Assembly (NCBI GenBank): GCA_000004695.1
Contig: CM000152.2
Location: 3,584,001-3,648,000 of the forward strand
DNA: 64,000 nt
Origin: Dictyostelium discoideum
Lineage: Eukaryota
Direction of reading: 5' to 3'
Below, piece after piece: positions 20,056-42,749 of this stretch (positions are counted from its first letter, which is position 1; the number at the start of each line of letters is the position of its first letter). A model generated the notes under the pieces. That model made no database searches. It was not told the DNA's origin and was given only the letters and a program-made list of their open reading frames with translations. Both the position numbers and the translations under genes were made by a program.

Positions 20056-20451
20056 ATGGTAAAAAATAGTGAACATCTACCATGGTATTTAGGCAGTGAC
20101 TCTGCAACCGCTGCTTCCACAGCAACTGATGCCACCTCTGCAGATGGTGCCGCCTCTGAAACTGATGCCGCCTCTGCAACTGATACCACCTCTGCAACTG
20201 ATCCCACCTCTGCAACTGATCCCATTGCCACTACCAATACCACCGGCATTACATCCAGTGGTCCTACTACCAACGGTAGAAGAGGTAGACCATATATATC
20301 AACACCACCAAATCGTTGCTATGATTGTGGAAGAACCAGATCTCCATATTGGAGAAAAGGAACCTACAACGGCCAAGTTGTACATCTTTGCAACGCTTGT
20401 GGTTTAAATCATATCAAAATCGCAAAAAAATCATCAGCAATATTTTTGTAA
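20056..20451 (+). CDS. GATA-type zinc-finger protein, single exon, 131 aa
   Basis: Contains CYDCGRTRSPYWRKGTYNGQVVHLCNACGL, a C-X2-C-X17-C-X2-C finger. The N-terminus is built from an imperfect 18-bp (SATDxT)n repeat. Confidence 0.75.
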   Translation: MVKNSEHLPWYLGSDSATAASTATDATSADGAASETDAASATDTTSATDPTSATDPIATTNTTGITSSGPTTNGRRGRPYISTPPNRCYDCGRTRSPYWRKGTYNGQVVHLCNACGLNHIKIAKKSSAIFL

Positions 20452-21492: not shown

Positions 21493-21550
21493 TAAATAAA
21501 TAATACAGAAATTAAGTAAATAAAATTCGGATGGAACCTACATAAATTTA

Positions 21551-22033
21551 TTATTGTCCTTGATTTGGTTGGTTTGGTTGGTTTGCTGCTGCTGCTGCTG
21601 CTGCATCATCCTCAGCGAATAACTGGGCGATGAGATTCATGTCAACTAAATCGTGAGTATTAACTGGTGTTAAAACTGCATAGTTAATATCAATATGGGG
21701 ATATTGTTTTTGTGTATATAATATGGCCTCGTCAACTTCAGCTCTGATATCCCAACCTGCTTGATCAGATCTTGCGAAAAAAATAGCAGCGGTGTCACCC
21801 ATTTTTGGGTACCATATTGGGTTTCTATTGAGTCTTGCTTTAAATCTTTTTCTGGCATTTGTTATGTAATTAGGTGAGGCGTAATCATAATTGGCACCGT
21901 TATTGGTAGCAGCCAAGGCAAGTACAGTTTGTGGTATTTGATCTAAATCTCTAATTTTTATTGCTTTTGTGACAATTACTTTTGAACAATACACACCATT
22001 GTCATTATATAAACTTGGGTTGATTGACGACAT
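21551..22033 (-). CDS. Hypothetical 160-aa protein, copy 1 of a duplicated gene
   Basis: Intact ATG-to-stop ORF with coding-like composition. It is nearly identical to 30124..30606 (2 aa differences) and ends in poly-Ala and NQP repeats. Confidence 0.65.
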   Translation of the reverse strand: MSSINPSLYNDNGVYCSKVIVTKAIKIRDLDQIPQTVLALAATNNGANYDYASPNYITNARKRFKARLNRNPIWYPKMGDTAAIFFARSDQAGWDIRAEVDEAILYTQKQYPHIDINYAVLTPVNTHDLVDMNLIAQLFAEDDAAAAAAANQPNQPNQGQ

Positions 22034-22608
22034 TCTTGAAAAAATAAAAAAATTAAAAAAAAAAAATTTTTTTTGAAATGATTTTTATCTAAAATATTTC
22101 GAGATTTTATAAAAAAAATTAAACTTTTTTTGATTTTGCAGCGTCACCACTACTATGTAAAATATTTACAATGCATTTACAATGCAATTACATTGTGATT
22201 TGTCTTTAAGTAAATTAACGTATCCCATATTAATTTTATCTATAATCAGAGAGATATAAAACTAATTTTTTTTTTTTTTTATATCTAAAAACTAGGAAAA
22301 AATATTAAAAAATAAAAATAAAAAAATCTTTTTAATTAAAAATATTTATTCGGTCATTCATTTTTCTTTTTTTTTTTTAAAAAAAAAACAATAAATAAAT
22401 AAAGGAAAAAAAGAAATTTATGAAACTTAAAAAAAAAAAGTAAAAAAGTTTTTTTTGGAATTTATTTTTTTTTTTTTTTTATATTTATAATTCAACAATA
22501 AACAAAATCAACAACATAATGTCTAAATGATCAAATAATTCTCTGGGTGAAGATATGGTCAACCAAAATATAAAACAAGTAAAAAAAGTTCAATATAGAT
22601 GTAAGTTG

Positions 22609-22639
<31 letters not shown>

Positions 22640-22828
22640 GAAAAAATAAAAACAAATAAAAAATAAATAAAAATAAAAAATAAATAAAATAAAAAAAAAA
22701 AAAATAAATAAATAAAATAAATAAATAAATAAATAAATAAATAAATTAAAAAATTAATGTATGAATTAGTAAATAAATAAATTAATATTTTTACTAATTT
22801 TTTTTTATTTATTTTCAAATTAGAGAAT

Positions 22829-23455
22829 GATCATTGAAGAGTTATCCAATTTAATAAAGAGAAATTTATTATGGTCACAATCGGTGTTTGAAATGTATTG
22901 AAACCATAGAAAGGGTGTACCCGCTTGAAATATGACAACTAATACTCGAAATGTACCATTGAAAAGAGCTATCGCTATTGTATTTGAAAATCGTGAAACC
23001 ACTGGCGATGATTTAATTGGCAAAGAATGTGTACCACTAGAAATGGTTTAATCTATTCGATCAATAGAAATTGCTTTACATGTTCTCGCTGATTATAAAC
23101 ATGACCTATGATGAATAATCGATCACTGCTGAATGTGACCCAATTAAGAAAAGTCAAGCATAAGAGAATATGACCCATTCTTAATCTCTGGTTCTATGGT
23201 AATCAAAGGTTTTGGTACTATGTTAGTCACAGCCGTTGGTGAAATTATAATAATTTCATTCAATAGTAAACAAGTTAGCCAAAATCAACAAAAATGTTAA
23301 ATTATGTTACACTTTGAATTATACAAATTCATTATTAGTTTTAGCAAGTGAAAACTCCATTCGAGACAAAACAAGATAATATTGGTGTTGTTATTATTGG
23401 TATTACAGAGAAACTAGAAATCCAGCGATAGACTTGTTCAAAATCTTTTTTAAGC
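22829..23455. mobile_element. Repeat X copy (reverse orientation relative to 17583..18075), inserted in the ARF upstream region
   Basis: This segment is absent from the paralogous sequence at 42285, which retains only the two X termini. Confidence 0.5.
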
Positions 23456-23524: not shown

Positions 23525-23900
23525 ATGGTCGTACACCACCAGCTGGTGGTCAGTGACCTAATATGAGAAGACCGCAGTCTACAAATATCTAGCGAACACT
23601 GACCCATTATTGTCAAACGGCCGTCGGACACCAGCCTTTTAATTCATTACCACCTGGCATTGGCAAAAGTGATCTATAAGTTAAAAATTTTTAACTTATA
23701 GATCTATAAGTTAAAAATTTTTTTTAAATTGTTTAAAAAAAAAATAAAAAAAAAAATTAATTAAATTTTCTAAAATACATTTTATACAGTTTTATTTACT
23801 GTTGTAGGGAATTTTTTTTGAAATTTCGCTTTCTAAACGGCAGTGAATTTTTACACTAAAATACACTGTTTATACCTTTATTTATTAAATTGAATTAATA
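23525..23900. mobile_element. Repeat modules Y and Z carrying a solo 78-bp TIR (23789..23866) of the TTAA-type element. A 34-bp perfect palindrome lies at 23659..23692.
   Basis: Y matches 10020..10150 and Z matches 10230..10360. The solo TIR is identical in sequence to 30791..30866. Confidence 0.45.
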
Positions 23901-29875: not shown

Positions 29876-30123
29876 TAATGTAAATTTTATTTATTTTTTT
29901 TCTATTTTTTTATAATTATTTTAGTAATTGTTTATTTTAATAGTAATATTCAAATTTGATGAATAACAAAAAAAGACACATAATGTTTTACTCTTTAGAA
30001 AGGGAATTTTTATTTTTATTTTTTTTATTTTTATTTTTTTTTTATATTTAATTTTAAGGTTTTATAAATTCACAATGAGACCTAGTATTATTATATAAGA
30101 GTTAAATTAAATAAACTAATTTA

Positions 30124-30606
30124 TTATTGTCCTTGATTTGGTTGGTTTGGTTGGTTTGCTGCTGCTGCTGCTGCTGCATCATCCTCAGCGAATAACTGGG
30201 CGATGAGATTCATGTCAACTAAATCGTGAGTATTAACTGGTGTTAAAACTGCATAGTTAATATCAATATGGGGATATTGTTTTTGTGTATATAATATGGC
30301 CTCGTCAACTTCAGCTCTGATATCCCAACCTGCTTGATCAGATCTTGCGAAAAAAATAGCAGCGGTGTCACCCATTTTTGGGTACCATATTGGGTTTCTA
30401 TTGAGTCTTGCTTTAAATCTTTTTCTGGCATTTGTTATGTAATTAGGTGAGGCGTAATCATAATTGGCACCGTTATTGGTAGCAGCCAAGGCAAGTATAG
30501 TTTGTGGTATTTGATCTAAATCTCTAATTTTTATTGCTTTTGTGACAATTACTTTTGAACAATACTCACCATTGTCATTATATAAACTTGGGTTGATTGA
30601 CGACAT
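30124..30606 (-). CDS. Hypothetical 160-aa protein, copy 2 of the duplicated gene
   Basis: Identical to 21551..22033 except V14E and V36I. The 3' flank carries a small inversion relative to copy 1. Confidence 0.65.
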   Translation of the reverse strand: MSSINPSLYNDNGEYCSKVIVTKAIKIRDLDQIPQTILALAATNNGANYDYASPNYITNARKRFKARLNRNPIWYPKMGDTAAIFFARSDQAGWDIRAEVDEAILYTQKQYPHIDINYAVLTPVNTHDLVDMNLIAQLFAEDDAAAAAAANQPNQPNQGQ

Positions 30607-30790
30607 TCTTGAAAAAATAAAAAAATTAAAAAAAAAAATTTTTTTTGAAATGATTTTTATCTAAAATATCTCGAGATTTTATAAAAAAAATTAAACTTTT
30701 TTTGATTTTGCAGCGTCACCACTACTATGTAAAATATTTACAATGCATTTACAATGCAATTACATTGTGATTTGTCTTTAAGTAAATTAA

Positions 30791-31009
30791 TGTTGTAGGG
30801 AATTTTTTTTGAAATTTCGCTTTCTAAACGGCAGTGAATTTTTACACTAAAATACACTGTTTATACGTAGTGTAAAAATTCACTAAAATTTTTTTTTTTT
30901 TTTTATAAATTAAAAACAATTTATTTAATCAAAATAATAAAAAAACTAATTTTAAACAATTATTTGTTGTTTAAGAATTAAATAACAATTTAAATTGTTA
31001 GATTTGAGC

Positions 31010-31047
<38 letters not shown>

Positions 31048-31334
31048 TTTTTTTTTTATTTTTTATTTTTCTTTTTTTTTTATTTTTCATTTTTTTTTTA
31101 TTTTTTATTTTTTTTTTTTATTTTTTTTTTTTCATTTTTTTTTTTATGTAACGAAGACACAAAAATAAGTTAATATTAAATAAGTGAACAAAGACACTAA
31201 TTATAGTTGACCCGCATTTAAATAATAATAATAATAATAATAATTCTATTAACTCGAGTTTATAATTATAAATAATATAAATACTAAAAATAATTATATA
31301 AACAATAATGAATACCATAATTAAAATATAAACC

Positions 31335-31379
<45 letters not shown>

Positions 31380-31470
31380 ATTTTTTTCAATTTTTTTTTA
31401 TCGAACAATTTTATTTTATTCCCCAAAAATGAAAACAATCGATAAAAAAAAAAATTGAAAAAAATAATTG

Positions 31471-31502
<32 letters not shown>

Positions 31503-31718
31503 GCAAACTAAATTTTTTTGTTATAAAAAATAAATAACAAGCAAATAACTGAATAAAATTGGTTTTTTATTTTTCTGATTAAATAAATTGTTTTTTAATT
31601 TAATTATAAAAAAAAAAAAAATTTAGTGAATTTTTACACCATGCATAAACAGCGTATTTTAGTGTAAAAATTCACTGCCGTTTAGAAAGCGAAATTTCAA
31701 AAAAAATTCCCCACAACA
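30791..31718. mobile_element. Non-autonomous DNA-transposon-like element, 928 bp, with 76-bp terminal inverted repeats and a TTAA target-site duplication. No ORF.
   Basis: TIR-L 30791..30866 is tgttgtagggaatttttttt..aatacactgtttatac and TIR-R 31643..31718 is its reverse complement (2 mismatches). Flanking TTAA lies at 30787..30790 and 31719..31722. The uninterrupted paralogous site taaatTAACgtatccc is at 22209..22222. Confidence 0.75.
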
Positions 31719-31901
31719 TTAACGTATCCCATATTAATTTTATCTATAATCAGAGAGATATAAAACTATATTTCCCTAATTATAGATCAAACAAATAAGA
31801 ATCAATAATCTAATTCACAAATTCAATTTTAAAAAAAGGATAAAAAAATCAGGCAATAATAATTATGGGATGTGTAAAACATTCACAACAATTATATTTA
31901 T

Positions 31902-32102
31902 TTATTCATCGTTATGTTGACATGAATTTTGAACATCTTTAATAAGAAGAAATTGTTTTATATAGTCTGACATTAACAAACTAAACGATTCGGTGCATTG
32001 CTTTATTACTTCTGGTGTACTTGAATAATTCGATTTATTACATAGCGATTCCATCATACGAATACATAGAGAGTCTATTTGTTTAATTCCTTCTAAATCC
32101 AT
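31902..32102 (-). CDS. Island ORF, 66 aa, hypothetical
   Basis: ATG ORF in the compositionally atypical island, 37 bp from the next ORF. Confidence 0.3.
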   Translation of the reverse strand: MDLEGIKQIDSLCIRMMESLCNKSNYSSTPEVIKQCTESFSLLMSDYIKQFLLIKDVQNSCQHNDE

Positions 32103-32138
32103 CTTGAATGTTTTGTAATAATGATTGGTTTTTTTATT

Positions 32139-32378
32139 TTATAAATTGTTTGTGATATGTTTATATAACCGGAATAATTCTTTGTCTTCTTCACGAAATA
32201 GTTCTTCGGAATCTTTATAGTGCAGTCTAAAAAAGCCAGTAAATTTACCTGTTTCGTCATCAAGTATTGGTACGTGTTTTATATTCGATTTCAAATATTG
32301 AATTTTTAAAATGAAATTATTTATAGTTGCTACAACTTGTCTATGTGATAAATATATCTCGTCTTCTTCTCCTTGCAT
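32139..32378 (-). CDS. Island ORF, 79 aa, hypothetical. Possibly a HicB-like partner of the adjacent HicA-like ORF, but this is speculative.
   Basis: Divergent from the HicA-like ORF with a 75-bp spacer. The segment HVPILDDETGKFTGFFRLHY weakly resembles the HicB N-terminal beta-strands. Confidence 0.3.
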   Translation of the reverse strand: MQGEEDEIYLSHRQVVATINNFILKIQYLKSNIKHVPILDDETGKFTGFFRLHYKDSEELFREEDKELFRLYKHITNNL

Positions 32379-32453
32379 GTTTTAAAATGATTTATTTGAA
32401 TAATAAAATTGATTTAAAGAAATAAAATATATAGAAATGTATATAAAAAAGAA

Positions 32454-32642
32454 ATGAAATATTCAAGAGTTGAAAAAACCCTCAAAGAAAATGGTTGGGT
32501 AATGGAACGTATGAAAGGGGGTCACGCACAATTTAGGAATGATAGTGGTGGATCGACTACTGTTCCGTATAATGGTAATAAAGATATACCAATTGGTACA
32601 TTAAAAGCCATCGAAAAACAAACTGGTGTGAGTATTATATAG
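32454..32642 (+). CDS. HicA/YcfA-family toxin-domain protein, 62 aa
   Basis: MKYSRVEKTLKENGWVMERMKGGHAQFRNDSGGSTTVPYNGNKDIPIGTLKAIEKQTGV fits the HicA consensus (..L.k.GW..vr.kGSHh.F.h......tvP.H..kdl..GTl.sIlKQaGl) along its whole length. It uses codons rare in the host (ggg, cac, gca, tcg, ccg). Confidence 0.6.
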   Translation: MKYSRVEKTLKENGWVMERMKGGHAQFRNDSGGSTTVPYNGNKDIPIGTLKAIEKQTGVSII

Positions 32643-32659
32643 TTTATTTATTTATTTAT

Positions 32660-32944
32660 TTAAAAACCAATTATTGTGTTGTATACATCACGGATATTAT
32701 GATGTTTATGATTAAAGAACATGGGATTTATGGGACCATGTGAAAATATTTCCTCACGTGTTGGCATTGGTCTCATTTCTGGTTCTGTGATAATGTTGTA
32801 GTATTGTTTGAGAATACTATATTCTTTATATGTTTTTACTTCATTTGTTTTTAACATTTGAGCTAGTATCATTTGTGTTTGGAGCGCAGATTTTATTTGA
32901 TTATGTGTATCCATTTCGTTGTTATATGTGTATGTTAAAAACAA
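32660..32944 (-). CDS. Island ORF, 94 aa, hypothetical
   Basis: ATG ORF 18 bp downstream of the HicA-like ORF, on the opposite strand. Confidence 0.35.
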   Translation of the reverse strand: MFLTYTYNNEMDTHNQIKSALQTQMILAQMLKTNEVKTYKEYSILKQYYNIITEPEMRPMPTREEIFSHGPINPMFFNHKHHNIRDVYNTIIGF

Positions 32945-33046
32945 TAATGATTATGATTTTATATTTTTTTCTTTTTGACTTTTAAACTGTTGTATCAGTG
33001 TAGTATTGTGCTGGTTGAACAGCAACCGTTAATTGTTCTGTTGATG

Positions 33047-33481
33047 TCATACCAGCTGGAGGAAGCGAATATAGACGTAAATTAAGTGGTGTCGCTGAGC
33101 CAAGGGAAAGCACTTTGCAATAGCAGATTTACCGGTAGAGTCAACACAAATGAATGAACAATATGCACTGGTAACCCTGGTTGGAATGGTAGTTGATGTC
33201 CAAGTGAACCCGAGCATCTTATCTGCGTATCCACCGGTGTTTGCTGGTAATGTGAGTGTGGAGAAATATATTGTGACTTGACCTTTCGATCTATTGTACG
33301 CGAAAATGGCACTTAAACCTGGAATTGTTGCGATTGGGGTTGTGTTGTTAATTGATGATATCACATGTACAGTCAAAGATATTTGATGGTATGAGAAGTT
33401 ATCGGAACCAAAAACCTTCCCCGATCGATTTATGATTCTTCCATTGTCTTGTAAAATTAAATCTCCAAATATAGATGTCAT
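33047..33481 (-). CDS. Island paralogue family member P1, 144 aa
   Basis: The N-terminus MTSIFGDLILQDNGRIINRSGK is shared with 34324..34740 and 34907..35353. The protein is beta-rich and has no signal peptide. Confidence 0.5.
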   Translation of the reverse strand: MTSIFGDLILQDNGRIINRSGKVFGSDNFSYHQISLTVHVISSINNTTPIATIPGLSAIFAYNRSKGQVTIYFSTLTLPANTGGYADKMLGFTWTSTTIPTRVTSAYCSFICVDSTGKSAIAKCFPLAQRHHLIYVYIRFLQLV

Positions 33482-33622
33482 TCTTTTGTTGTGGTAATAT
33501 GTTGTGTTGTTTTATGTGTAATACGTTTTTCCATTTTAGATTTATTTATTTGTGATTAGTAACTTTCTTTTTGTGTTGGAAGACGATTTTACCCTCGGCT
33601 ATGTATTTGTGTTTTTCAGCTA

Positions 33623-34225
33623 CTATTTTTGATCTCTGATACATTTATCGGGCATCATTTTCAACCAATCATACCATTCTAAATCAAACATTGGTCTAAT
33701 GTTGTCATTAATCATAGCACGAACCACTAACCAATTCAGTGTTGACGAACTATATCCTGGATGGCCGTAACGGCTGTTCGTTATGTGGTTGAATTGGAAG
33801 TCAGAGTATGTTCTGTTGTATAGAATTCCATACAAGAATTTCAACCCTTTCGAACGCTTCGATGTATAGTGTCTTTTATTTCTGAACTTTCCAGTTTCAA
33901 TAAATTTCCATATATCTGGTTTGGTGAATTTTTCCAAAACAGATTTAATATGGTCGTAATTTGGGTGATTGTATATTAATAGTACCCTTGTCTTTAAAAC
34001 ATGTGGGGGATGTCTTGATGTTTTACTGCATGTTTTTAAATGATTAATTACACCTTTATCATCTGGTGGTGCAAGAAACACTAGAATCACTCGCTTTGTC
34101 ACTACACTCCTCCAAACTTTCCAAAATAATACTTCTGATGGTGATGAGACTGGTTTTTTATTTGATGTAAAAGATTCCTCTATCTCTCTCTTTCTTTTAT
34201 TTGTGTCTTTGATTGGTTCGTTCAT
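33623..34225 (-). CDS. Island ORF, 200 aa, hypothetical basic protein
   Basis: Intact ORF with N-terminal KRKRE. No recognised domain. Confidence 0.4.
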   Translation of the reverse strand: MNEPIKDTNKRKREIEESFTSNKKPVSSPSEVLFWKVWRSVVTKRVILVFLAPPDDKGVINHLKTCSKTSRHPPHVLKTRVLLIYNHPNYDHIKSVLEKFTKPDIWKFIETGKFRNKRHYTSKRSKGLKFLYGILYNRTYSDFQFNHITNSRYGHPGYSSSTLNWLVVRAMINDNIRPMFDLEWYDWLKMMPDKCIRDQK

Positions 34226-34323
34226 TTGGTAATATAATAATAAATGTAAAGAATCGCAATTGTTTGATTAAATAAATCTAAATTTGATATCGAAAACAAA
34301 CAACACATTATCACATTCAAATT

Positions 34324-34740
34324 ATGACATCTATACATTGTAATTTAGTTTTGCAAGACGGTGGTAGGATCATTAGTAAAGACGGCAGTGCGCAAGCACA
34401 GGGGATCGGCAACAGCGAAATCATCCCATTCACAACAGACGCATTCATAACGTCAACTTTTCCTGACAACCCACCAGTTGGAAGTCCAAAGAGAAAGACA
34501 ATTCAGTGTATCGCTTACAAATACAGAAAAGGACCATCGTCATACACTATTAGGGTCTCAATCCCATCTATTTCTTTTCCAATGGGAGACTATGATGGAC
34601 ACTGTTTGGGTTTTATCCAGCCATCGGCATCATTGGGGATCAAAGTGCGTATTACATACTTTGGGTTCTTTCAATTTACAACTGATACTGGCACAGTAAA
34701 AACAACTAAAAACAGTTCAATTATGAACTATGGGGGATGA
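34324..34740 (+). CDS. Island paralogue family member P2, 138 aa
   Basis: Starts MTSIHCNLVLQDGGRIISKDGS. About 42% GC, with runs such as gcgcaagcacaggggatcggcaacagcg. Confidence 0.5.
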   Translation: MTSIHCNLVLQDGGRIISKDGSAQAQGIGNSEIIPFTTDAFITSTFPDNPPVGSPKRKTIQCIAYKYRKGPSSYTIRVSIPSISFPMGDYDGHCLGFIQPSASLGIKVRITYFGFFQFTTDTGTVKTTKNSSIMNYGG

Positions 34741-34906
34741 TAACATTCCGTATTTCCAATCATCTCTACCGATAACATCATCGGTGCCCGTATCATTCGT
34801 GACAAGTAATTCTGATGGTGTTTTTCCATACACTGGAATATAATGGCCCTTTTTCTAAATAAACAAATAAACACTATATTTTATTACCAAGAACCACAAC
34901 AAAAGA

Positions 34907-35353
34907 ATGACATCTATATTTGGAGATTTAATTTTACAAGATGGAGCTAAAATAATTCGTAGGGACGGTTCATCTTTAATTCCATCTAGAACCATCAGAA
35001 ATGCCACCATTAATATTGGAACCATGACCAATACCTCAACACCTGGTAGTTTGATAACTATACAGGCTGAAGCAACATTTATCATAGACGACGATAAGTA
35101 CGTCGAAATGCTCATAGGTATGAAATTTATACCAACTTCAACACACAATGGGAGAGTCATGGTAATCTCTGGCCTTCCATTAGATTTGGTATCAACAAAA
35201 CCACCAAACGGATCATGTATGGTTACAGGTGACGATAACTATGCAATTATTACAATGGCACATTTCGATAGATGGGTAACTGGTGTACCACAAGCACAGT
35301 TAGCATCAACAATTCCATTATCCGGGTTACCTACAACAACCCATCTTCTTTAA
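34907..35353 (+). CDS. Island paralogue family member P3, 148 aa
   Basis: Starts MTSIFGDLILQDGAKIIRRDGS. It shares the internal motif MLIGMKFIPTST with P1 (MLGFTWTSTT). Confidence 0.5.
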   Translation: MTSIFGDLILQDGAKIIRRDGSSLIPSRTIRNATINIGTMTNTSTPGSLITIQAEATFIIDDDKYVEMLIGMKFIPTSTHNGRVMVISGLPLDLVSTKPPNGSCMVTGDDNYAIITMAHFDRWVTGVPQAQLASTIPLSGLPTTTHLL

Positions 35354-35483
35354 TACAAAAACTTCAGGGTCTTTTATAAATTATAAATAAAAACTATAAT
35401 CATTATTTTTTAAAAAAATAAGAACCATTATGTGATAAAGCGTTATTAAATATATGTTATTATTTATTTTTTTTATTGTATTT

Positions 35484-35738
35484 TTATTTTTGAAAGTAAC
35501 CACCACATAATGTAATTTGTGGTGTGATATCTTTTGACGGTGGTGAACCATCTTCTGGCCATATATTTAATATTGATCTGTAAATGGCCGATGTTTGTAG
35601 ATATGATTCTTGCTTTGCGATATAGTATAAATGTTTAATCCTTAAATTATCTTCTTCATCAGAGGCATTGTTTTCAGAAGCGATGCAAATTCTTATTAGT
35701 TGTCTTTCTATTTTTAATTCCATTCTATCTGATAGCAT
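35484..35738 (-). CDS. Island ORF, 84 aa, hypothetical
   Basis: Intact ATG ORF. Confidence 0.3.
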   Translation of the reverse strand: MLSDRMELKIERQLIRICIASENNASDEEDNLRIKHLYYIAKQESYLQTSAIYRSILNIWPEDGSPPSKDITPQITLCGGYFQK

Positions 35739-35875
35739 TCTGTCGCTATCAATAGCCTGTTGATCATTGATTTATTTATATGTATTTGTGTTATTTCATC
35801 TGGTGTGTCTATGTTCATTGTTTGTATTTGTTTGATGTTTTCGATAATAAAAAATTTATTTTATTTATTGGTTTT

Positions 35876-36241
35876 TTATTTTTCGACATTTTCGCAATCA
35901 CTGTCTGAATATTCGTATTCTTCGAACCTTGATTCTTCGCCAATATCAGAATCATCACTATCAGGATCGTAAATATAAGAATGTTCTTCGCAAAGTGGAT
36001 CGTTCTTTTTGTTTGAACACCAATTACCATAAAGATCGGCGATATCCACACCTTTTTTTGATTCTTCTTTGAAACTATCATGTATATACTCCAAACACCC
36101 ACTTACACAACACCTCAAAATGTGGTAGTCACAGTTTGAACATTTGAGTGAATATCTTTCCAACGGATGGTCTGATTGTGTGTGGTGTATAAATATCTGT
36201 TGATTTCTACAGTTTTCGCAATAGGTTTTGAAACAGTGCAT
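35876..36241 (-). CDS. Island ORF, 121 aa, Cys-rich (possible zinc-binding) acidic protein
   Basis: CxxC..CSNC..C..CxxGC..CEEH spacing, plus an acidic D/E/S tail. Confidence 0.4.
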   Translation of the reverse strand: MHCFKTYCENCRNQQIFIHHTQSDHPLERYSLKCSNCDYHILRCCVSGCLEYIHDSFKEESKKGVDIADLYGNWCSNKKNDPLCEEHSYIYDPDSDDSDIGEESRFEEYEYSDSDCENVEK

Positions 36242-36538
36242 TTTGAATAATGAATAAAGAAATTACAAATAATTTAAATAAACAAATAAAGATGCACGTC
36301 GAATGGTTGGGTGAAACAAAGAGTGATGAAATATTCAATAAAAGAATGGAAATTATCGAAAAACTCCAGCAGTTACTTTTAACTCAAATCGAAATTGGTT
36401 TGAATATCTAAGAAAACGTAGACCTGCTTTGACCTGTACCATCACTATACTATCACTATATTCTCACTGTAGCGATACTGATCTAGTACAGTAAAAAAAC
36501 TGTGGTTTTTATTTATCAATTTTATAAAAATAAAAAGT

Positions 36539-36787
36539 TTATTTATTATTTATTTTTGTTTGTTTTTTTGGTTGAATTATTGGTTGTTTCTTACCACTTC
36601 TTTCAAGTTTTAATGGTTGTGTATTATCTTTTTTTGAAACACGCTTTCTTTTAGTGTAAATTGTTGGTGGAACACCCTTTGGTAATGTTACTTCTTTGTT
36701 TTCAACACCTTCTTCTTCAACCTGTTTATTGTTTTCCATTTGTTGTTTTACATATTTAAAAAAAAACAATAATATATATTTAAACAT
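36539..36787 (-). CDS. Island ORF, 82 aa, lysine-rich basic protein
   Basis: High K/R/Q content, which could indicate nucleic-acid binding. Confidence 0.3.
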   Translation of the reverse strand: MFKYILLFFFKYVKQQMENNKQVEEEGVENKEVTLPKGVPPTIYTKRKRVSKKDNTQPLKLERSGKKQPIIQPKKQTKINNK

Positions 36788-36959
36788 TGTGTATAATTCG
36801 ATTATAATAATAACAATTGTTATTAGAAAATTTAAATAATTTAATGATTTTGATTATTTTTTATTTTTATTTTACTAAAAAACATGATCCAAATAACACA
36901 GCGTTTGTACAGTACCAGCAATGTATTAATACAGTGATAGTACAGTGTTTGTATAGTGT

Positions 36960-37457
36960 TTATAAGGTTGACACAACGCTATCTTCTATCACTTCTTTAA
37001 CAACGGATTTCACTGTGGATGGTAATGTAATAACAGCGGATGATGGCCAGTATCTGTAAATTACGTAACCCAATGCTGAAATTGCGAGAATACCACCAAC
37101 GATTTGAAGATCACCACGTTTATAAAATGGTACTTCACTAACTAAATTTGCTAGTGGTTGTGATGGCGCTATTATCTCTTTGTTTTCTATTTCACCACCA
37201 TCGATTATCACAACCACTGGCTCTTGTTTTACTTGTGGAAGAGTGTCAAGGTCTATTAAATCGATTACTTCGCCGTCACCAGAAACACCTAATAAATCGA
37301 ATGTTGGTGATAATGATTCGGGTATCGGAATGTTAATTTGTTTTTTCGAAAGATTGGATTTTTTCTCTTTTTTATTTGTGATTGTCTTTGCTACCTTGAT
37401 TCTTGTCTTTACCTCTTTTACATTTATATTTTCTGGGTTGATAATAAGTTTTGACAT
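36960..37457 (-). CDS. Island ORF, 165 aa, with a predicted single TM helix near the C-terminus
   Basis: The GGILAISALGYVIY hydrophobic segment is preceded by a lysine-rich N-terminus. Confidence 0.35.
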   Translation of the reverse strand: MSKLIINPENINVKEVKTRIKVAKTITNKKEKKSNLSKKQINIPIPESLSPTFDLLGVSGDGEVIDLIDLDTLPQVKQEPVVVIIDGGEIENKEIIAPSQPLANLVSEVPFYKRGDLQIVGGILAISALGYVIYRYWPSSAVITLPSTVKSVVKEVIEDSVVSTL

Positions 37458-37518
37458 TTTTATTTAAATGATTATACTCATTTTATTTATTTGTTTACAA
37501 GTTTGTATTTTGAGATTT

Positions 37519-37755
37519 TTATTTATATTTTTTATCAATAAGTTCTTTGATGGAAAGTGACTCAGAATCATTGATTTCTGGTATTGTGAAATCATAACGA
37601 TTATACTTGAATGCAATGAACTCTTCTTGACTCTTGAATATTACTTTACCACGACTTGCTCTAGAGAATGTTAGATATCTTAACCAACTAACTGGTGCGT
37701 TGTTTTTTGCCAACCAACAATGAAAGTATCGTGTAGATGATAAATAAACCTCCAA
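37519..37755 (-). CDS. Island ORF, 78 aa, hypothetical
   Basis: Intact ATG ORF, 62 bp from its neighbour. Confidence 0.3.
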   Translation of the reverse strand: MEVYLSSTRYFHCWLAKNNAPVSWLRYLTFSRASRGKVIFKSQEEFIAFKYNRYDFTIPEINDSESLSIKELIDKKYK

Positions 37756-37808
37756 AAGAAATGATTCAACACCATCATCGGTACGAGGAAAGAGAACATT
37801 GAACGATC

Positions 37809-38468
37809 TTAAATTAATAGCAGATCGAGTTTATTTGGGTCATGATAAATTGGTTTTGAAAGCGAGAACACTCTAGCATTAATACCACCAAGATTTGTTA
37901 CATTTTCGGCAGAGTTTTTCGAAACACTAGTTGGTAATGGATCAAAAGCATGTTCCCATATTTCTTCTATTTCAGATTCTCCTTCTGGTTCGGAAATTTG
38001 TAGTGTATCGTTATTATGTTGAGAGTTATCGATTTCATCATCTTCCTCATTGGATTTTATAGGTGATTGGATCGTTGCTGCGCTGGTAGATGTGGCTGTA
38101 GTTGTAGTGGTTTTGGTTGGTGACCGGTAATCGTCGTGTTTCTGTTCGTCTTCTTCTTTATCTTTTGATTGTTGTTGTAAGAGTTCTTTTAGCTGTTGTT
38201 GTTTAAGTTGACGTAGTTGGTTTTGTTGATGATAGTGTTGTTCCATTTCAAGTTGTTTTGATATGTGGTGTTGTTGATTTGGTGGTGGTGAAAGGAATGA
38301 AATTGGTGATGAATAATGTTGGTGTGTTGGAGTCATTATCTCCATTGGTTGGTATGATTTATCTCTATTGTCTATTATTTCTTTGTAGATTCTATTTTCA
38401 ATTTTAGCTACATTATACTTTTTCTTTAAAACACATCGTGTTTTATTTTTTTTTTTTTCAAATACCAA
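37809..38468 (-). CDS. Island ORF, 219 aa, Gln-rich then acidic protein
   Basis: Contains HYHQQNQLRQLKQQQLKELLQQQ, a Thr/Ser tract and an acidic tail. It is the last ORF before the AT-rich host flank. Confidence 0.35.
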   Translation of the reverse strand: MVFEKKKNKTRCVLKKKYNVAKIENRIYKEIIDNRDKSYQPMEIMTPTHQHYSSPISFLSPPPNQQHHISKQLEMEQHYHQQNQLRQLKQQQLKELLQQQSKDKEEDEQKHDDYRSPTKTTTTTATSTSAATIQSPIKSNEEDDEIDNSQHNNDTLQISEPEGESEIEEIWEHAFDPLPTSVSKNSAENVTNLGGINARVFSLSKPIYHDPNKLDLLLI

Positions 38469-38538
38469 TTTAATTCTAACTTTAAATATAAAAAAACAAT
38501 GATGTTCCTATATTAAGAAACAATGTTATTTATTATTT

Positions 38539-38576
<38 letters not shown>

Positions 38577-38777
38577 AGTGTGTCTTGCATGTTTATATAC
38601 AACATTTTTTTTATTATTTTATTTTAAAAAAAAAAGCGGAACTGAAATATTTGGAAATGGTTTTTCTAAAAATAGAATTTTTTGATCGGCCAAAAATGAA
38701 AAATAATTACATCATTACAATAAAATGGGAAAATAATGAGAAAACAATAGAGATTTGTAAAAATTAATACTAAAATT

Positions 38778-38818
<41 letters not shown>

Positions 38819-39223
38819 TAATCCAAGTGTGGGAAGTTTTATATTATTAAATTTACAGATAATGCAATACCACTCTTTTTTTTTTTTTATTTGGGTGTGA
38901 TAAATAAAAAACAAAAATAAAAATAAAAAAAAAACAAATGGTGGTGATTGATTGTGTGCTGTTTTCTTAAAAAATAAATAAATAAAAAAAAAAATTTAAA
39001 AATAAAAATATACTTTTTGAAATTACATATTGACACAATGATATAAATAATTTTTTTTTTTTCATTATTATTTTTATTTTTTTGTTCACTCAAAAACATC
39101 TCTATTTTATTTTATAAAAGCTACACATTGTAAATCCAAATTTTTATTACCTTTCAAGTAAATATTATTTTTTATTTTAGTTTTAAAAATATATTTTATT
39201 AACCTTTTTTTATCTTTTTTTTC

Positions 39224-39256
<33 letters not shown>

Positions 39257-39267
39257 TCTTATAAAGA

Positions 39268-39624
39268 ATGGAAAACCCATTCAATTCCAATACCCATAAT
39301 AATTATAATTATAATAATTATAATAATAATAATTATAATAATAATAATAATTATTATAATAATAATTATAATAATAATTCAAATAATAATAGAATCTCAA
39401 TTAATGACATTTTAAATGAAGGCACTGCGCCAACAACTAAATCAATTTGCCAAAACCAAATCCATGGTCCTCCATCTAAAATTATTACAAAAGTTTTGGA
39501 TTCTAAACCACCAAGGGAAGTTGTTTCACATGATAATCATTTTAATCAACCAAATAATTTAGATAACTGTTCTTTCCAAATTACAAAAGAGGTAATTAAA
39601 ATATTTAAATCAATAATTAAATAA
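39268..39624 (+). CDS. Possible small Asn/Tyr-rich protein gene, 118 aa
   Basis: The ORF runs from ATG to stop with a poly-N/Y repeat. Its 3' half is unique sequence. No further support. Confidence 0.25.
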   Translation: MENPFNSNTHNNYNYNNYNNNNYNNNNNYYNNNYNNNSNNNRISINDILNEGTAPTTKSICQNQIHGPPSKIITKVLDSKPPREVVSHDNHFNQPNNLDNCSFQITKEVIKIFKSIIK

Positions 39625-39704
39625 AAAAAAAAAAAAAAAAAACCTTAAATATAATACTAATTTTGGGTGAATATAACATGATAAAGTCCTATAATAATAA
39701 TTAA

Positions 39705-39739
<35 letters not shown>

Positions 39740-40019
39740 TATTTATATTGATAATGATAATAGTAATAATAATAATTTTAATTGTTATAATTCAATATAT
39801 TTTGAAATCGATAATGATACAACAAATAAAACTGAAATCTGTAATAATTATTATTGAATAAATAATAATTGTGACTTGTGTGTTGGTAGTAAATACTTGC
39901 AAAGATTGTGTTACAAGAAATTAAACATTCCTGTTTCCTAACTGCAAGAAAAAAAAACTCTATTTTTACCTGGACTGCTTGGTGAAATTTTTCACTTCCC
40001 ACTTGGCAAAAAAAAAAAT

Positions 40020-40078
40020 CCAAATCAAATCAAATCAAATAAAATCAAATCAAATCAAATCAAATAAAATAAAATTAA
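40020..40078. repeat. (CAAAT)n pentanucleotide microsatellite
   Basis: Direct repeat. Confidence 0.9.
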
Positions 40079-40289
40079 ATCAAATCATTCATTATTAAAT
40101 AAAGTAATAATAAAAATAAAAATAAATAAAAATAAATAAAATATTAATTTACCACAAACAAAATCTTTTTTTTTTTTTTTTTTTATTATTTGTTTGTGTA
40201 TTTGTGAAAAAAAACCAAAGAAGTATAATAAAATCATTTTTTACAACATCATTGATTATTTTATGTATACCAAACAATAACACTATGGG

Positions 40290-40480
40290 ATTTTTAACAC
40301 TTATTTATAAAAACAAATTCGCAGTGAGTTTTCACTCTAAAATGCACTGTTTAAATACCCTAGATTTTTTTTTTTTATTTTTTATAATTATAAAACAATC
40401 TATTTAACCAAAAAAAAACTAATTTTAAATAGTCAAAATTAAATAATAATTTTCTTTTAAGTTTGGCGCCAAATTTTTTT
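40290..40480. mobile_element. Diverged left-end fragment of the TTAA/TIR element family
   Basis: ..ttcgcagtgagttttcactctaaaatgcactgtttaaatac.. plus internal sequence match 30830..31010. Confidence 0.4.
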
Positions 40481-40483
40481 TTT

Positions 40484-40735
40484 TTACATGGTACAGTGTG
40501 ATACACCATCACCTGAATCCATAACGATACCAGTGGTACGACCAGATTCATATAATGATAATACATCTTGAATGGCGACATACATAGCTCGAGTGGTGAA
40601 AGTTTCAAACATAATTTGGGTCATCTTTTCTCTATTTGCTTTTGGATTTAATGGTGCTTCAGTTAAGAGAACTGGACGCTCTTCTGGTACAACACGTAAT
40701 TCGTTGTAGAAAGTATGATTTAATAACAATAACAA
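40484..40735 (-). pseudogene. Actin gene fragment (residues about 88-170 only)
   Basis: [75 protein letters not shown] is nearly identical to conserved actin. There is no start codon and no remainder of the gene. Confidence 0.85.
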
Positions 40736-40831
40736 TAATAATTATCTACATTTTTAAATCTTCACAAACTATGAACTCATTTCTTTTAATTATTGTTTTT
40801 TTTTTTTTTTTAATTATTGTTTTTGCTAAAA

Positions 40832-40905
40832 TACCAATTACTATTATTATTACTATTACTATTACTATTACTATTACTATTACTATTACTATTACTATTA
40901 CAATT
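40832..40905. repeat. (TATTAC)n hexanucleotide microsatellite
   Basis: Direct repeat. Confidence 0.9.
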
Positions 40906-42047
40906 CGATTGGTGTTATAATCTGAAGTTTATTAAATTTCTATTTGAATCCATAACCTATTCTTATTTTGTAACTGATTCAGGTTTGGAACATTATTAAA
41001 ATAGAGTTTGTGAAGTTAAATAATTTATCGCTGAAGTTGTAGTTCAAATCTGACAACCAAAATTTATATTTTTTTTTAATTTTTTATTAGTTTTTTAACA
41101 TCGATTTAATTTTATTTATTTTTAATATGAATTTAATATAGATAAATAGACCATGATTAGATTGATTCGTTTTATGGTTGTCAAATTTTTTTATTTTGTT
41201 AACGTTGTGATACTTTTTTTTTTTTTTTTTAGGTTTCTTGTTCTTTTTATAAATTTTTTTTTATTTATTTCAATTTCCAGAATTTTATTTTTTCAACAAA
41301 AATAGGATTCACTCCAATAAAATATATTTTTTAAAAATATATATTTCTTAATTCTTACAATTAATAAGTTGAAAAAAAAATTAAAAATTAAAAATTAAAT
41401 CCAAATAAAAACTATTTTTAGAAATAAAAAAAATAAAAATAAAAATTAAATAATTAAGATTAAAAATTAAAAACACAAAAAAAATTTATACTTTTTTTAA
41501 TTTTTCTTTTTTTAATTATTTTAAATAATTTAAAAAATAATTTTGAATGTGACCAACACTTGGTCCCGTTGATGTTGCTGTTTTTGCTATTAATTTTGAT
41601 TTATTTTTTTTATTTTTTTTAAAGTTTATTTAAAATTTCCTCATTTATGTTTATCACTTTTATTTTTTTTTTTTACATATAATTTTTTTTTTCAAGAGAA
41701 GTAATTTATTTTTTTTTTTATATCTAAAAACTAGGAAAAAATATTAAAAAATAAAAATAAAAAAATCTTTTTAATTAAAAATATTTATTCGGTCATTCAT
41801 TTTTCTTTTTTTTTTTTAAAAAAAAAACAATAAATAAATAAAGGAAAAAAAGAAATTTATAAAACTTAAAAAAAAAAAGTAAAAAAGTTTTTTTTGGAAT
41901 TTATTTTTTTTTTTTTATATTTATAATTCAACAACAATAATCAAAATCAACAACATAATGTCTAAATGATCAAATAATTCTCTGGGTGAAGATATGGTCA
42001 ACCAAAATATAAAACAAGTAAAAAAAGTTCAATATAGATGTAAGTTG

Positions 42048-42078
<31 letters not shown>

Positions 42079-42749
42079 GAAAAAATAAAAACAAATAAAA
42101 AATAAATAAAAATAAAAAATAAATAAAATAAAAAAAAAATAAATAAATAAATAAAATAAATAAATAAATAAATAAATAAATAAATTAAAAAATTAATGTA
42201 TGAATTAGTAAATAAATAAATTAATATTTTTACTAATTTTTTTTTTTTTTATTTTCAAATTAGAGAATGATCATTTGGTATTACAGAGAAACTAGAAATC
42301 CAGCGATAGACTTGTTCAAAATCTTTTTTAAGCCAATACAACGCTCAATTAAATTATTATTTTTTAAAATCACATATTCACAACTATACAGTGTCAATAA
42401 TCAAAGCGCTTTGAAAATTTAAAGTACATAACAAAAAAAAAAAAAAAAATTAAACAGTGCAGGAATTGATTTTTCAATTAAATGAAATTAAAAAAAGAAA
42501 AATCTCACTATTTCCACGATTATTGTTTCTATTAATACTATAACCTCATTATTATTATTACCATTTATATTAATATTATTATAATTATTTTTATTATTTT
42601 TTTTTTTTTGTTCACCCCCAATAAATTTATCACAAAATATGTCCTCATTCATTAGTTATTAAAGAAACTAAAAATAAAATAAAACAATAAATATAATTAT
42701 AATAACAAAATAAAATAAAATAAAATAAAATAAAATAAAATAAAATAAA

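Follow-up and report, generated by a model that had tools for sequence, protein, structure and literature searches.

A gene-dense island in chromosome 3 of Dictyostelium discoideum AX4, probably an eroding fragment of an undescribed large DNA virus or virus-like episome

Fragments of Nucleocytoviricota genomes have become endogenous in amoebae such as Acanthamoeba, where they form gene-dense, compositionally distinct inserts in the nuclear genome that are rich in orphan open reading frames (ORFans), vary between strains, are partly eroded and carry no mobility genes (PMC5203793; PMC12210455). A previous screen of Dictyostelium discoideum turned up almost no genes of viral origin (PMC5203793). 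Here we describe an island of 6.7 kb in chromosome 3 of D. discoideum AX4 (DDB_G0280655-0280675) that resembles these amoebozoan inserts in all of the respects just listed. It lies at positions 31769-38468 of the 64,000-nucleotide stretch that was analyzed (hereafter the window), and is probably an endogenous, eroding ~6.7-kb fragment of an undescribed large double-stranded DNA (dsDNA) virus or virus-like episome of the D. discoideum complex. It differs from the Acanthamoeba-type inserts in having no hallmark gene of nucleocytoplasmic large DNA viruses, its relatives offering no more than an AEP primase domain and a VLTF3-like gene that scores below threshold, in a source lineage that matches nothing in IMG/VR, and in its host, Dictyostelium, in which almost no virus-related genes were found (PMC5203793). 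Endogenous fragments of large DNA viruses are thus known in protists, and it is the lineage and the host that are new; a literature search found no prior account of the island genes, of the sequencing runs and assemblies used here, or of any Dictyostelium virus or endogenous viral element.

Two further groups of described systems invite comparison. Mriyaviruses and Yaravirus are ORFan-rich relatives of giant viruses with genomes of 35-45 kb (bioRxiv 10.1101/2024.02.29.582850). The contigs related to the island are of similar scale (47-58 kb), have few recognizable genes and likewise show a VLTF3-like factor, sub-threshold in these contigs, and no visible polymerase, and one member of the group has an amoebal host; however, the major capsid protein (MCP), packaging ATPase, VLTF2, RuvC and HUH endonuclease of these viruses were not detected in the related contigs. 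The nuclear plasmids (Ddp1/Ddp2) and transposons (DIRS, Skipper, TRE, DDT/Tdd, thug) of Dictyostelium are, like the island, compact, Dictyostelium-specific selfish DNA with many ORFans. Domain scans of every island open reading frame (ORF) detected no reverse transcriptase, transposase, integrase or Rep domain, as had been claimed when the DNA was read without database searches (hereafter the sequence-only reading). Its statement that the island matches none of the known dictyostelid elements also stands, as there is no reverse transcriptase, DDE transposase, tyrosine recombinase, Rep, terminal repeat or target-site duplication, with the qualification that the plasmids were not compared by sequence. 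For the two island families queried, a search of 5.8 billion proteins, from sources that include NCBI nr, returned no plasmid protein.

The island holds 14-15 ORFs of 50-219 amino acids on both strands (~2.1 genes per kb, 82% coding), which bears out the dense packing of short ORFs first noticed in the sequence, with spacers of 8-172 bp whose pooled GC content is 0.22. At the base composition of the island a stop is expected every 13-14 codons and the probability that a frame stays open for at least 120 codons is ~1e-4, so that these ORFs are not chance events. Exact look-up matched island ORFs to the annotated hypothetical genes DDB_G0280655 (HicA), 0280661, 0280663, 0280665, 0280669, and 0280673. 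Homopolymer tracts are indeed lost at the island, runs of at least eight A/T being 14-fold rarer (0.45 per kb) than elsewhere in the window (6.5 per kb), and none of its 200-bp windows falls below 15% GC vs. 23% of those across the remainder. The GC content of 35-42% given by the sequence-only reading holds for 33.0-35.4 and 36.9-38.4 kb, the only parts of the island in which 300-bp windows reach 0.33-0.45, but not for the island as a whole, the mean of which is 0.32. A host ORF elsewhere in the window (20056-20451, plus strand, 131 amino acids, Ala/Thr/Ser-rich) has a GC content of 0.45, and 0.64 at second codon positions (GC2), so high GC alone is not unique to the island.

Formal measurement confirmed the proposed shift in codon usage. 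GC content at third codon positions (GC3) is 0.20-0.38 in 14 of the 15 island ORFs vs. 0.12-0.28 in 13 host ORFs (Mann-Whitney p = 0.003), and GCG (0.09 in the island vs. 0.01 in the host), TCG (0.11 vs. 0.01), GTG (0.18 vs. 0.06), CAC (0.42 vs. 0.16), and AAC (0.38 vs. 0.16) are all more frequent. C-ending and G-ending codons are both enriched, and the codons preferred by Dictyostelium (CCA, GGT, AGA, TTA, CAA) remain the top choice. G-ending codons are not known to be favored in highly expressed Dictyostelium genes, and because they are enriched here the shift points to another mutational background and not to selection for expression.

Loci related to the island were found in other strains and in sequencing runs. 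L001 lies in assembly GCA_054859355.1 (JBTAPG010000035.1); L005 and L007 are contigs of run ERR13950607; L008 and L009 are two copies in D. discoideum GCA_054859385.1; and L010 is in D. cf. discoideum GCA_054859205.1 (JBTAPH010000006.1). The wild-strain contigs include JBTAPF010000023.1 (47 kb), JBTAPH010000006.1 (58 kb), and JBTAPF010000005.1 (150-174 kb). By sequence comparison, much larger gene-dense elements in these wild relatives share homology with the core of the island (33.0-37.8 kb) and, in part, its gene order, the detectable homology being confined to 33188-37821. L005 (17.4 kb, GC 0.355, 0.36 A/T runs per kb) carries at least 27 genes in 16.7 kb, on both strands. Nine island ORFs from 33.0-37.8 kb have homologs in it, and five consecutive ones stand in the same order in both, with identities of 34-56% and E-values down to 3e-50:

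35876..36241, minus strand: block gene 1, DDB_G0280669, Cys-rich, probably zinc-binding, with an acidic tail; 47% to L005 13789-14217 (2e-32)
36250..36411, plus strand: block gene 2, a 53-amino-acid ORF; 42% to L005 14158-14469 (1e-9)
36539..36787, minus strand: block gene 3, an 82-amino-acid basic protein; 56% to L005 14570-14839 (2e-22)
36960..37457, minus strand: block gene 4, DDB_G0280673, 165 amino acids; 56% to L005 15579-16094 (3e-50)
37519..38468, minus strand: block gene 5, split into ORFs 37519-37755 and 37809-38468 and annotated as 251 amino acids with a 53-bp “intron”; right end of the virus-like DNA

The aligned Cys and His residues of DDB_G0280669 are largely conserved in its L005 homolog, and the protein is also 32% identical to L008 7928-8308. 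DDB_G0280673 has a single hydrophobic stretch near its C-terminus, conserved in L005 and read as a predicted transmembrane helix; over the region that includes this stretch it is 52% identical to its homologs in L008 and L009. Block gene 5 is homologous to L005 16190-16684 over 37609-37821, with 34% identity, and looks disrupted because a 53-bp gap (GC 0.40) stands in place of ~30 residues that are continuous in L005. The first of three paralogs described below is frameshifted relative to its orthologs in L001 and L005, the L001 copy being frameshifted too. At least two island genes therefore appear to be disrupted and the island to be decaying, a variable G-run in the second paralog being a further sign, and no gene for replication, packaging or integration was recognized in it.

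L001 is a second, fragmentary copy at a different locus in another strain. A 1.4-kb mini-island and a 150-bp piece are collinear with window 33671-32979 and 32042-31871, with different genes between them. A piggyBac-type transposase gene (PF13843) lies at L001 5644-7315, 2 kb from this island-like fragment; a link between piggyBac and the island was considered and set aside, since the gene has no counterpart in the window.

The larger contigs carry genes of viral type. L005 encodes an RNase H (5.8e-19) together with two members of the paralog family described below, 40% identical to those of the island. A further member lies in L007 (12.6 kb, 35% GC, almost free of homopolymers) beside genes typical of replication, namely a YqaJ/lambda-type exonuclease (7.5e-20), a deoxynucleoside kinase (1.9e-14), a GRF zinc ribbon, and a 446-amino-acid protein with a PrimPol-like AEP domain (PDB 5l2x, 1.8e-8). 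The PrimPol of 5l2x is a eukaryotic enzyme, and the GRF zinc finger is known mainly from eukaryotic DNA-repair proteins. A 482-amino-acid protein of L007 has a region resembling Pox_VLTF3 (PF04947, 20.1 bits, 5.6e-4), and an ortholog in the element of L008-L010 described below matches the same part of that family (22.5 bits, 1e-4). PDB searches with the 772-, 482-, 441-, and 424-amino-acid proteins of the related contigs gave nothing useful. Positions 1-30 and 12606-12635 of L007 are exact reverse complements (AATTTACCAACAAAATACCAGCAATTTACC), so that an inverted repeat bounds this segment of 12.6 kb in its source genome.

L008, L009, and L010 share a collinear element of at least 16 kb with 85-93% protein identity, which joins L007-type genes (among them the VLTF3-like gene) to L005-type genes (those for a highly conserved 424-amino-acid protein and for the 135- and 772-amino-acid proteins) and to four to five tandem genes of the paralog family. 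Since both gene sets are physically linked there, L005 and L007-L010 are pieces of one kind of large element, at least two copies of which occur in a single strain and which differs from strain to strain. A gene for a 2OG-Fe(II) oxygenase (AlkB-like) adjoins the tandem arrays at L008 11138-11503 and L009 8733-9311 and is not in the AX4 island. At the edge of L010 (20495-20531) a gene with a Phage_integrase (tyrosine recombinase) domain begins, which could be an integrase of the element or part of an adjacent DIRS-type retrotransposon.

Composition also ties the island to these contigs. GC3 is 0.30 in both the island core and L005 plus L007, and codon usage correlates at r = 0.94 between them vs. 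0.89 between island and host. With the same GC3 in source-type contigs, the island is better described as retaining the composition of its source element than, as earlier, as partly ameliorated. In its preferences this composition resembles that of Dictyostelium, which is what one would expect of a parasite long associated with such hosts. A short motif, [AT]TCATTAT, lies within 45 nucleotides 5′ of the start codon in 9 of the 27 L005 genes (nine sense vs. one antisense, P ~4e-9), and these nine sites are drawn from only 18 occurrences on both strands of the contig. It is also found upstream of two island genes, and is a candidate element-specific promoter.

Three paralogs lie in the core, as the sequence-only reading had recognized:

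32982..33481, minus strand: paralog 1, frameshifted in AX4, where an annotated 77-bp “intron” patches the shift
34324..34843, plus strand: paralog 2, DDB_G0280663, 138 amino acids in AX4, 172 if the G-run at 34732 is one base shorter
34907..35353, plus strand: paralog 3, DDB_G0280665, 148 amino acids

They are 25-29% identical and share a conserved 21-residue N-terminus, MTSIFGDLILQDGGRII. The 5′ ends of paralogs 1 and 3 (33447-33495 and 34893-34941; 13 nucleotides upstream and 36 of coding sequence) are 100% identical over 49 nucleotides, the two proteins having only ~25% identity otherwise, which suggests gene conversion or strong constraint on promoter and N-terminus. The G-run at 34732 is GGGGG in AX4 and GGGG in an independent assembly, GCA_054883475.1, giving DDB_G0280663 a length of 138 vs. 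172 amino acids; either one of the assemblies is wrong here or the frameshift is a genuine polymorphism. A word-indexed protein search with a profile of the triplet returned only D. discoideum proteins, one of them at L001, and AX4 carries the family only at the island. A full HMMER search of 1.84 billion representative proteins, a library drawn from public genomes, added 11 members of 108-176 amino acids, all of which start with MTSVYGDLILQDGAK. These come from GCA_054859385.1, GCA_054859205.1, and contigs of runs ERR13950607 and ERR13950634, and the search, in a library whose range of other dictyostelid proteomes was not verified, found no member beyond assemblies of the D. discoideum complex and these two runs. 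In the two assemblies the genes form tandem arrays of two to five.

AlphaFold modeling of a paralog was uninformative with a 4-sequence alignment (predicted local distance difference test, pLDDT, 39), and with 15 sequences (pLDDT 77, predicted template modeling score 0.63) gave an all-beta model with a compact beta-barrel head. A “fiber head” fold class has been described for virophage and marseillevirus virions (bioRxiv 10.1101/2023.01.23.525297), and the predicted structure of the family belongs to this class with moderate confidence, the assignment falling short of strong because a Foldseek search of BFVD with the model gave no significant match. An invariant short N-terminus, a hypervariable head and tandem paralogs fit the pattern of receptor-binding spikes. 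Named fiber heads are those of reovirus sigma-1, the adenovirus fiber knob, the heads of phage receptor-binding proteins, marseillevirus NMV_189, and virophage Zav_19 (bioRxiv 10.1101/2023.01.23.525297). The island family differs from them in its lack of sequence similarity and its short tail of ~25 residues, and its structure is a prediction.

The remaining two ORFs of the core are orphans:

33623..34225, minus strand: DDB_G0280661, 200 amino acids, with a basic N-terminus and near-equal GC content at the three codon positions (GC1, GC2, and GC3 of 0.33-0.35)
35484..35738, minus strand: an 84-amino-acid ORF with no matches, equal in position to L005 13463-13753 with no detectable similarity to it

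DDB_G0280661 has no homolog among 5.8 billion proteins, and shows only weak similarity, over 19-27 residues (EVLFWKVWRS...), to L005 5337-5819 and L009 12147-12599. Word-indexed searches with this protein and with HicA retrieved nothing beyond D. discoideum proteins or the query, and so gave no hint of origin. Motifs resembling hydrophobic-acidic SUMO-interaction sequences occur in short basic proteins of the elements, namely EVIIISSDEEE (L005 12577-12828), EVIVISSDDEE (L001 9627-9857), and EVIDLIDLD (window 36960-37457).

To the left of the core lies a variable arm:

31769..31901, no strand: junction on the left, with the first spacer; compared with a paralogous empty copy (22262/22263), the insert begins at 31769
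31902..32102, minus strand: 66-amino-acid orphan ORF; at the DNA level 31871-32042 matches L001 13357-13511 with 92-93% identity
32139..32378, minus strand: 79-amino-acid orphan ORF, divergent from hicA, with no notable Pfam, PHROG or PDB match and no homolog in the related loci
32454..32642, plus strand: HicA-family toxin gene DDB_G0280655, 62 amino acids (Pfam PF07927, E = 1.8e-17, 63.6 bits)
32660..32944, minus strand: 94-amino-acid orphan ORF with a TTG start and no match in Pfam, PHROGs or the related loci

The motif CCAATCATTAT stands 23 nucleotides 5′ of the ATG of the 66-amino-acid ORF, as in many L005 genes. Pfam and PHROGs searches of all island ORFs recognized only HicA, which the sequence-only reading had also picked out. 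Residues 4-59 of its 62 match PF07927 at 63.6 bits (cutoff 27), that is, over the full-length domain, and it matches PHROG 353 “toxin” (E = 3.8e-18) and HicA chains in the PDB (E = 1.5e-8). In alignments its kgGHaqf falls on rGSHyqw of PDB 9svk and on the position that is mutated in 4c26, so that the catalytic His is kept. It is 38-46% identical to HicAs of many unrelated bacteria and phages, plasmid-encoded ones among them, with no specific donor. The protein thus resembles the toxin of bacterial type II HicAB systems in length, score and aligned catalytic His; it differs in that no HicB is adjacent and that it sits in a eukaryotic chromosome within a virus-like insert, and the toxin is putative. 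No HicB or other antitoxin domain was found by Pfam, PHROGs or PDB searches of the neighbors (32139-32378 and 32660-32944, both minus strand), and the 79-amino-acid ORF, considered as a HicB, found no support there. HicA has no counterpart in any related locus.

The left boundary, described as sharp from the sequence, is exact when paralogous copies of the flank are aligned. Copy A (21545-22835) matches copy B in three blocks, 30118-30790, 31722-31768, and 41699-42275. Positions 22219-22262 correspond to 31722-31768 and diverge beyond 31768, and the continuation of copy A (22260-22835) matches 41699-42275 at 97.8%. Relative to copy A, copy B therefore has two separate insertions, an element of 932 bp with terminal inverted repeats (TIRs) at 30789-31720 and a block of 9.94 kb at 31769-41706. 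The length of 6.7 kb first given for the island thus describes the compositionally foreign part correctly, but not the insertion, which is longer by the following stretch:

38469..41706, no strand: AT-rich, host-like remainder of the 9.94-kb insert, GC 0.15-0.25 with many homopolymers; not virus-like

This stretch has no tblastx match to any related locus and contains an N-rich ORF of host type (39268-39624). A 76-codon actin fragment within it (40487-40714, minus strand) is probably a piece of an actin pseudogene. At the ends of the island (31769/38468) there is no TIR, long terminal repeat or target-site duplication, and no tRNA gene lies nearby. The sole possible duplication, a TA dinucleotide at both ends of the 9.94-kb insert, is not informative. 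GCA_054883475.1 is collinear with the window over 20.6 kb that include both junctions and differs only in homopolymer lengths, so island and junctions are real. Look-ups of island and flank proteins in other strains yielded nothing beyond one AX-lineage assembly, which is identical to the window.

The 932-bp element is non-autonomous and ends 48 bp left of the island. Its TIRs (TGTTGTAGGGAATTTTTTTTGAAATTTCGC...) are 95% identical over 114 nucleotides, it is bordered by a clean TTAA duplication, and the paralogous empty site (22213-22222) has an uninterrupted TTAA; a partial copy lies at 23796-23875 and a related fragment near 40321-40353. It looks like a miniature inverted-repeat transposable element of the piggyBac superfamily, inserted separately from the island. 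The window as a whole (1-64000) is a mosaic of segmental duplications of 77-99% identity (e.g., 3203-5990/24672-27111/46849-49781, 21545-22218/30118-30790, and 2143-2858/42647-43124/59281-59908), the duplicated genes being of tgr type (TIG/Ig_TgrO1), V4 or Arf-like. The left flank of the island holds a copy of the vegetative-specific V4 gene, DDB_G0280543, and the island thus sits in a rearrangement-prone recognition-gene (V4/tgr) region.

How could such a fragment have arisen? On the reading we favor, DNA of a large nuclear virus or virus-like episome would have entered the chromosome through illegitimate recombination while a nuclear infection was latent or had aborted, and a piece of ~6.7 kb would have become fixed in the duplication-rich V4/tgr region. 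The three paralogs would encode receptor-binding proteins of fiber-head type on the virion surface, with the 21-residue N-terminus as anchor and the beta-barrel as variable head. For the Cys-rich, basic and membrane proteins we would propose roles as additional virion components or as early proteins. HicA, an orphan RNase toxin in the variable left arm, would be cargo acquired from the bacteria on which the amoeba feeds; its use to the element may have been host shut-off or addiction, and no antitoxin partner accompanies it. The island itself would no longer be able to move or replicate, and would be decaying. As no capsid, packaging or polymerase gene was found, a virus as the source is an inference. 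The alternative offered by the sequence-only reading, an undescribed virus-like or mobile element, is the one to which the collinear gene-dense contigs with replication genes of viral type, the second fragmentary copy and the fiber-head fold all point.

A number of results weigh against a viral origin. Neither the island nor ~50 kb of related DNA contains a capsid, packaging ATPase, DNA or RNA polymerase or integrase recognizable by sequence. A double-jelly-roll MCP and an A32-type ATPase had no Pfam or PDB sequence match in the island, L005, L007 or L010, where divergent capsids could be missed; in the readable parts of the elements there is no D5-type helicase, family B polymerase or RNA polymerase subunit, only the AEP domain of the 446-amino-acid protein of L007. 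The gene set of Polintons, polinton-like viruses and virophages (pPolB or primase-helicase, RVE or tyrosine recombinase (YR) integrase, MCP, penton, ATPase, protease) was not detected in the island or the related loci, the Phage_integrase-domain gene lying just at the edge of L010. Scans of IMG/VR with the paralog family, DDB_G0280661, and the VLTF3-like alignment found no relative, nor did two scans of JGI metagenomes, and six ORFs, four in the left arm (HicA among them) and two in the core, are without relatives in the elements. VLTF3 is considered diagnostic of Nucleocytoviricota (bioRxiv 10.1101/2024.02.29.582850), but both matches to it are sub-threshold, lying under the Pfam gathering score of 25, and the gene is not in the window, so that affinity to this phylum is only suggested. 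Finally, the wild-strain copies (L008-L010) have host-like composition (GC 0.25-0.26, 3.7-5.1 homopolymers per kb) and could be old chromosomal islands rather than viral genomes.

Several of these absences would suit a non-viral selfish element, be it a large transposon that carries cargo or a piece of a nuclear plasmid or episome that became integrated; the contigs of 47-174 kb would be copies of this element. This is the main rival, and we consider it unlikely. Compact nuclear plasmids (the Ddp family) do occur in Dictyostelium, several copies exist and these differ between strains, L007 is bounded by its inverted repeat, a piggyBac-type transposase gene lies 2 kb from the fragment in L001, and a Phage_integrase-domain gene lies at the margin of L010. 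Yet the island has no transposase, Rep, recombinase, TIR or target-site duplication, and the piggyBac gene has no counterpart in the window. The fiber-head-like family and the VLTF3-like gene point instead to an element that forms virions, and an oriented motif near start codons would be typical of large DNA viruses. There is a smaller chance still that orphan genes native to this lineage, and evolving fast, make up the island and were captured by the virus-like contigs, with transfer from host to element: relatives are restricted to the D. discoideum complex, codon preferences resemble those of the host in kind, and duplication of gene families (V4, tgr, Arf-like) is concentrated in the region. 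Such a cluster would not be expected to match the composition of contigs of 35% GC rather than that of its host, to be collinear with an element over five genes, to have tiny spacers in place of AT-rich host intergenic DNA, or to be disrupted in several genes rather than maintained; a paralogous copy of the flank lacks the insert, and the HMMER search found no family member outside the complex and the two runs.

The sequence-only reading had favored a horizontally acquired cassette of bacterial or phage origin, which we now regard as very improbable and which survives only for hicA. HicA is a toxin of bacterial type and has relatives in bacteria and phages, as comparison with protein, phage and metagenome databases showed, but that comparison placed no other ORF: the other 13-14 match no PHROG, Pfam or other phage or bacterial family, and the families queried are absent from IMG/VR and JGI. 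Their relatives are confined to Dictyostelium-complex assemblies and the two runs, codon preferences are Dictyostelium-like and not bacterial, and the related contigs have no terminase, portal or tail genes, carry a GRF zinc finger and encode an AEP domain closest to the PrimPol chain of 5l2x. A chimeric assembly or contamination, for which odd composition and nothing further would speak, is refuted by GCA_054883475.1, which is identical across both junctions save for homopolymer lengths.

Beyond an endogenous fragment in AX4, a wider proposal can tentatively be made. The wild D. discoideum complex may carry, and may still be infected by, undescribed mid-sized nuclear dsDNA viruses distantly related to Nucleocytoviricota, the contigs of ERR13950607 and ERR13950634, with 35% GC and intact ORFs, being a live or recently integrated genome and the AX4 island a fossil. 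It is the VLTF3-like factor, the AEP primase, the fiber-head spikes and the promoter-like motif that suggest this distant affinity, and we hold the proposal with less confidence than the viral or episomal origin of the island itself.

Studies of host-pathogen biology, cell-autonomous immunity and social evolution have in Dictyostelium discoideum one of their leading models. If the island is what we take it to be, research on a virus or virus-like episome of Dictyostelium would have its first point of entry, and the runs and wild-strain contigs offer the recovery of a complete genome. The debate on small relatives of giant viruses would gain a new lineage made up mostly of ORFans, and the recognition-gene (tgr) region a natural marker of strain history. 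The bacterial-type toxin gene in a eukaryotic virus-like insert is an unusual case of such a gene traveling beyond bacteria. Should the live-virus proposal prove true, the Dictyostelium model system would have its first virus; should the elements prove non-viral, they would still represent a new class of large, strain-variable mobile DNA in the Dictyostelium genome.

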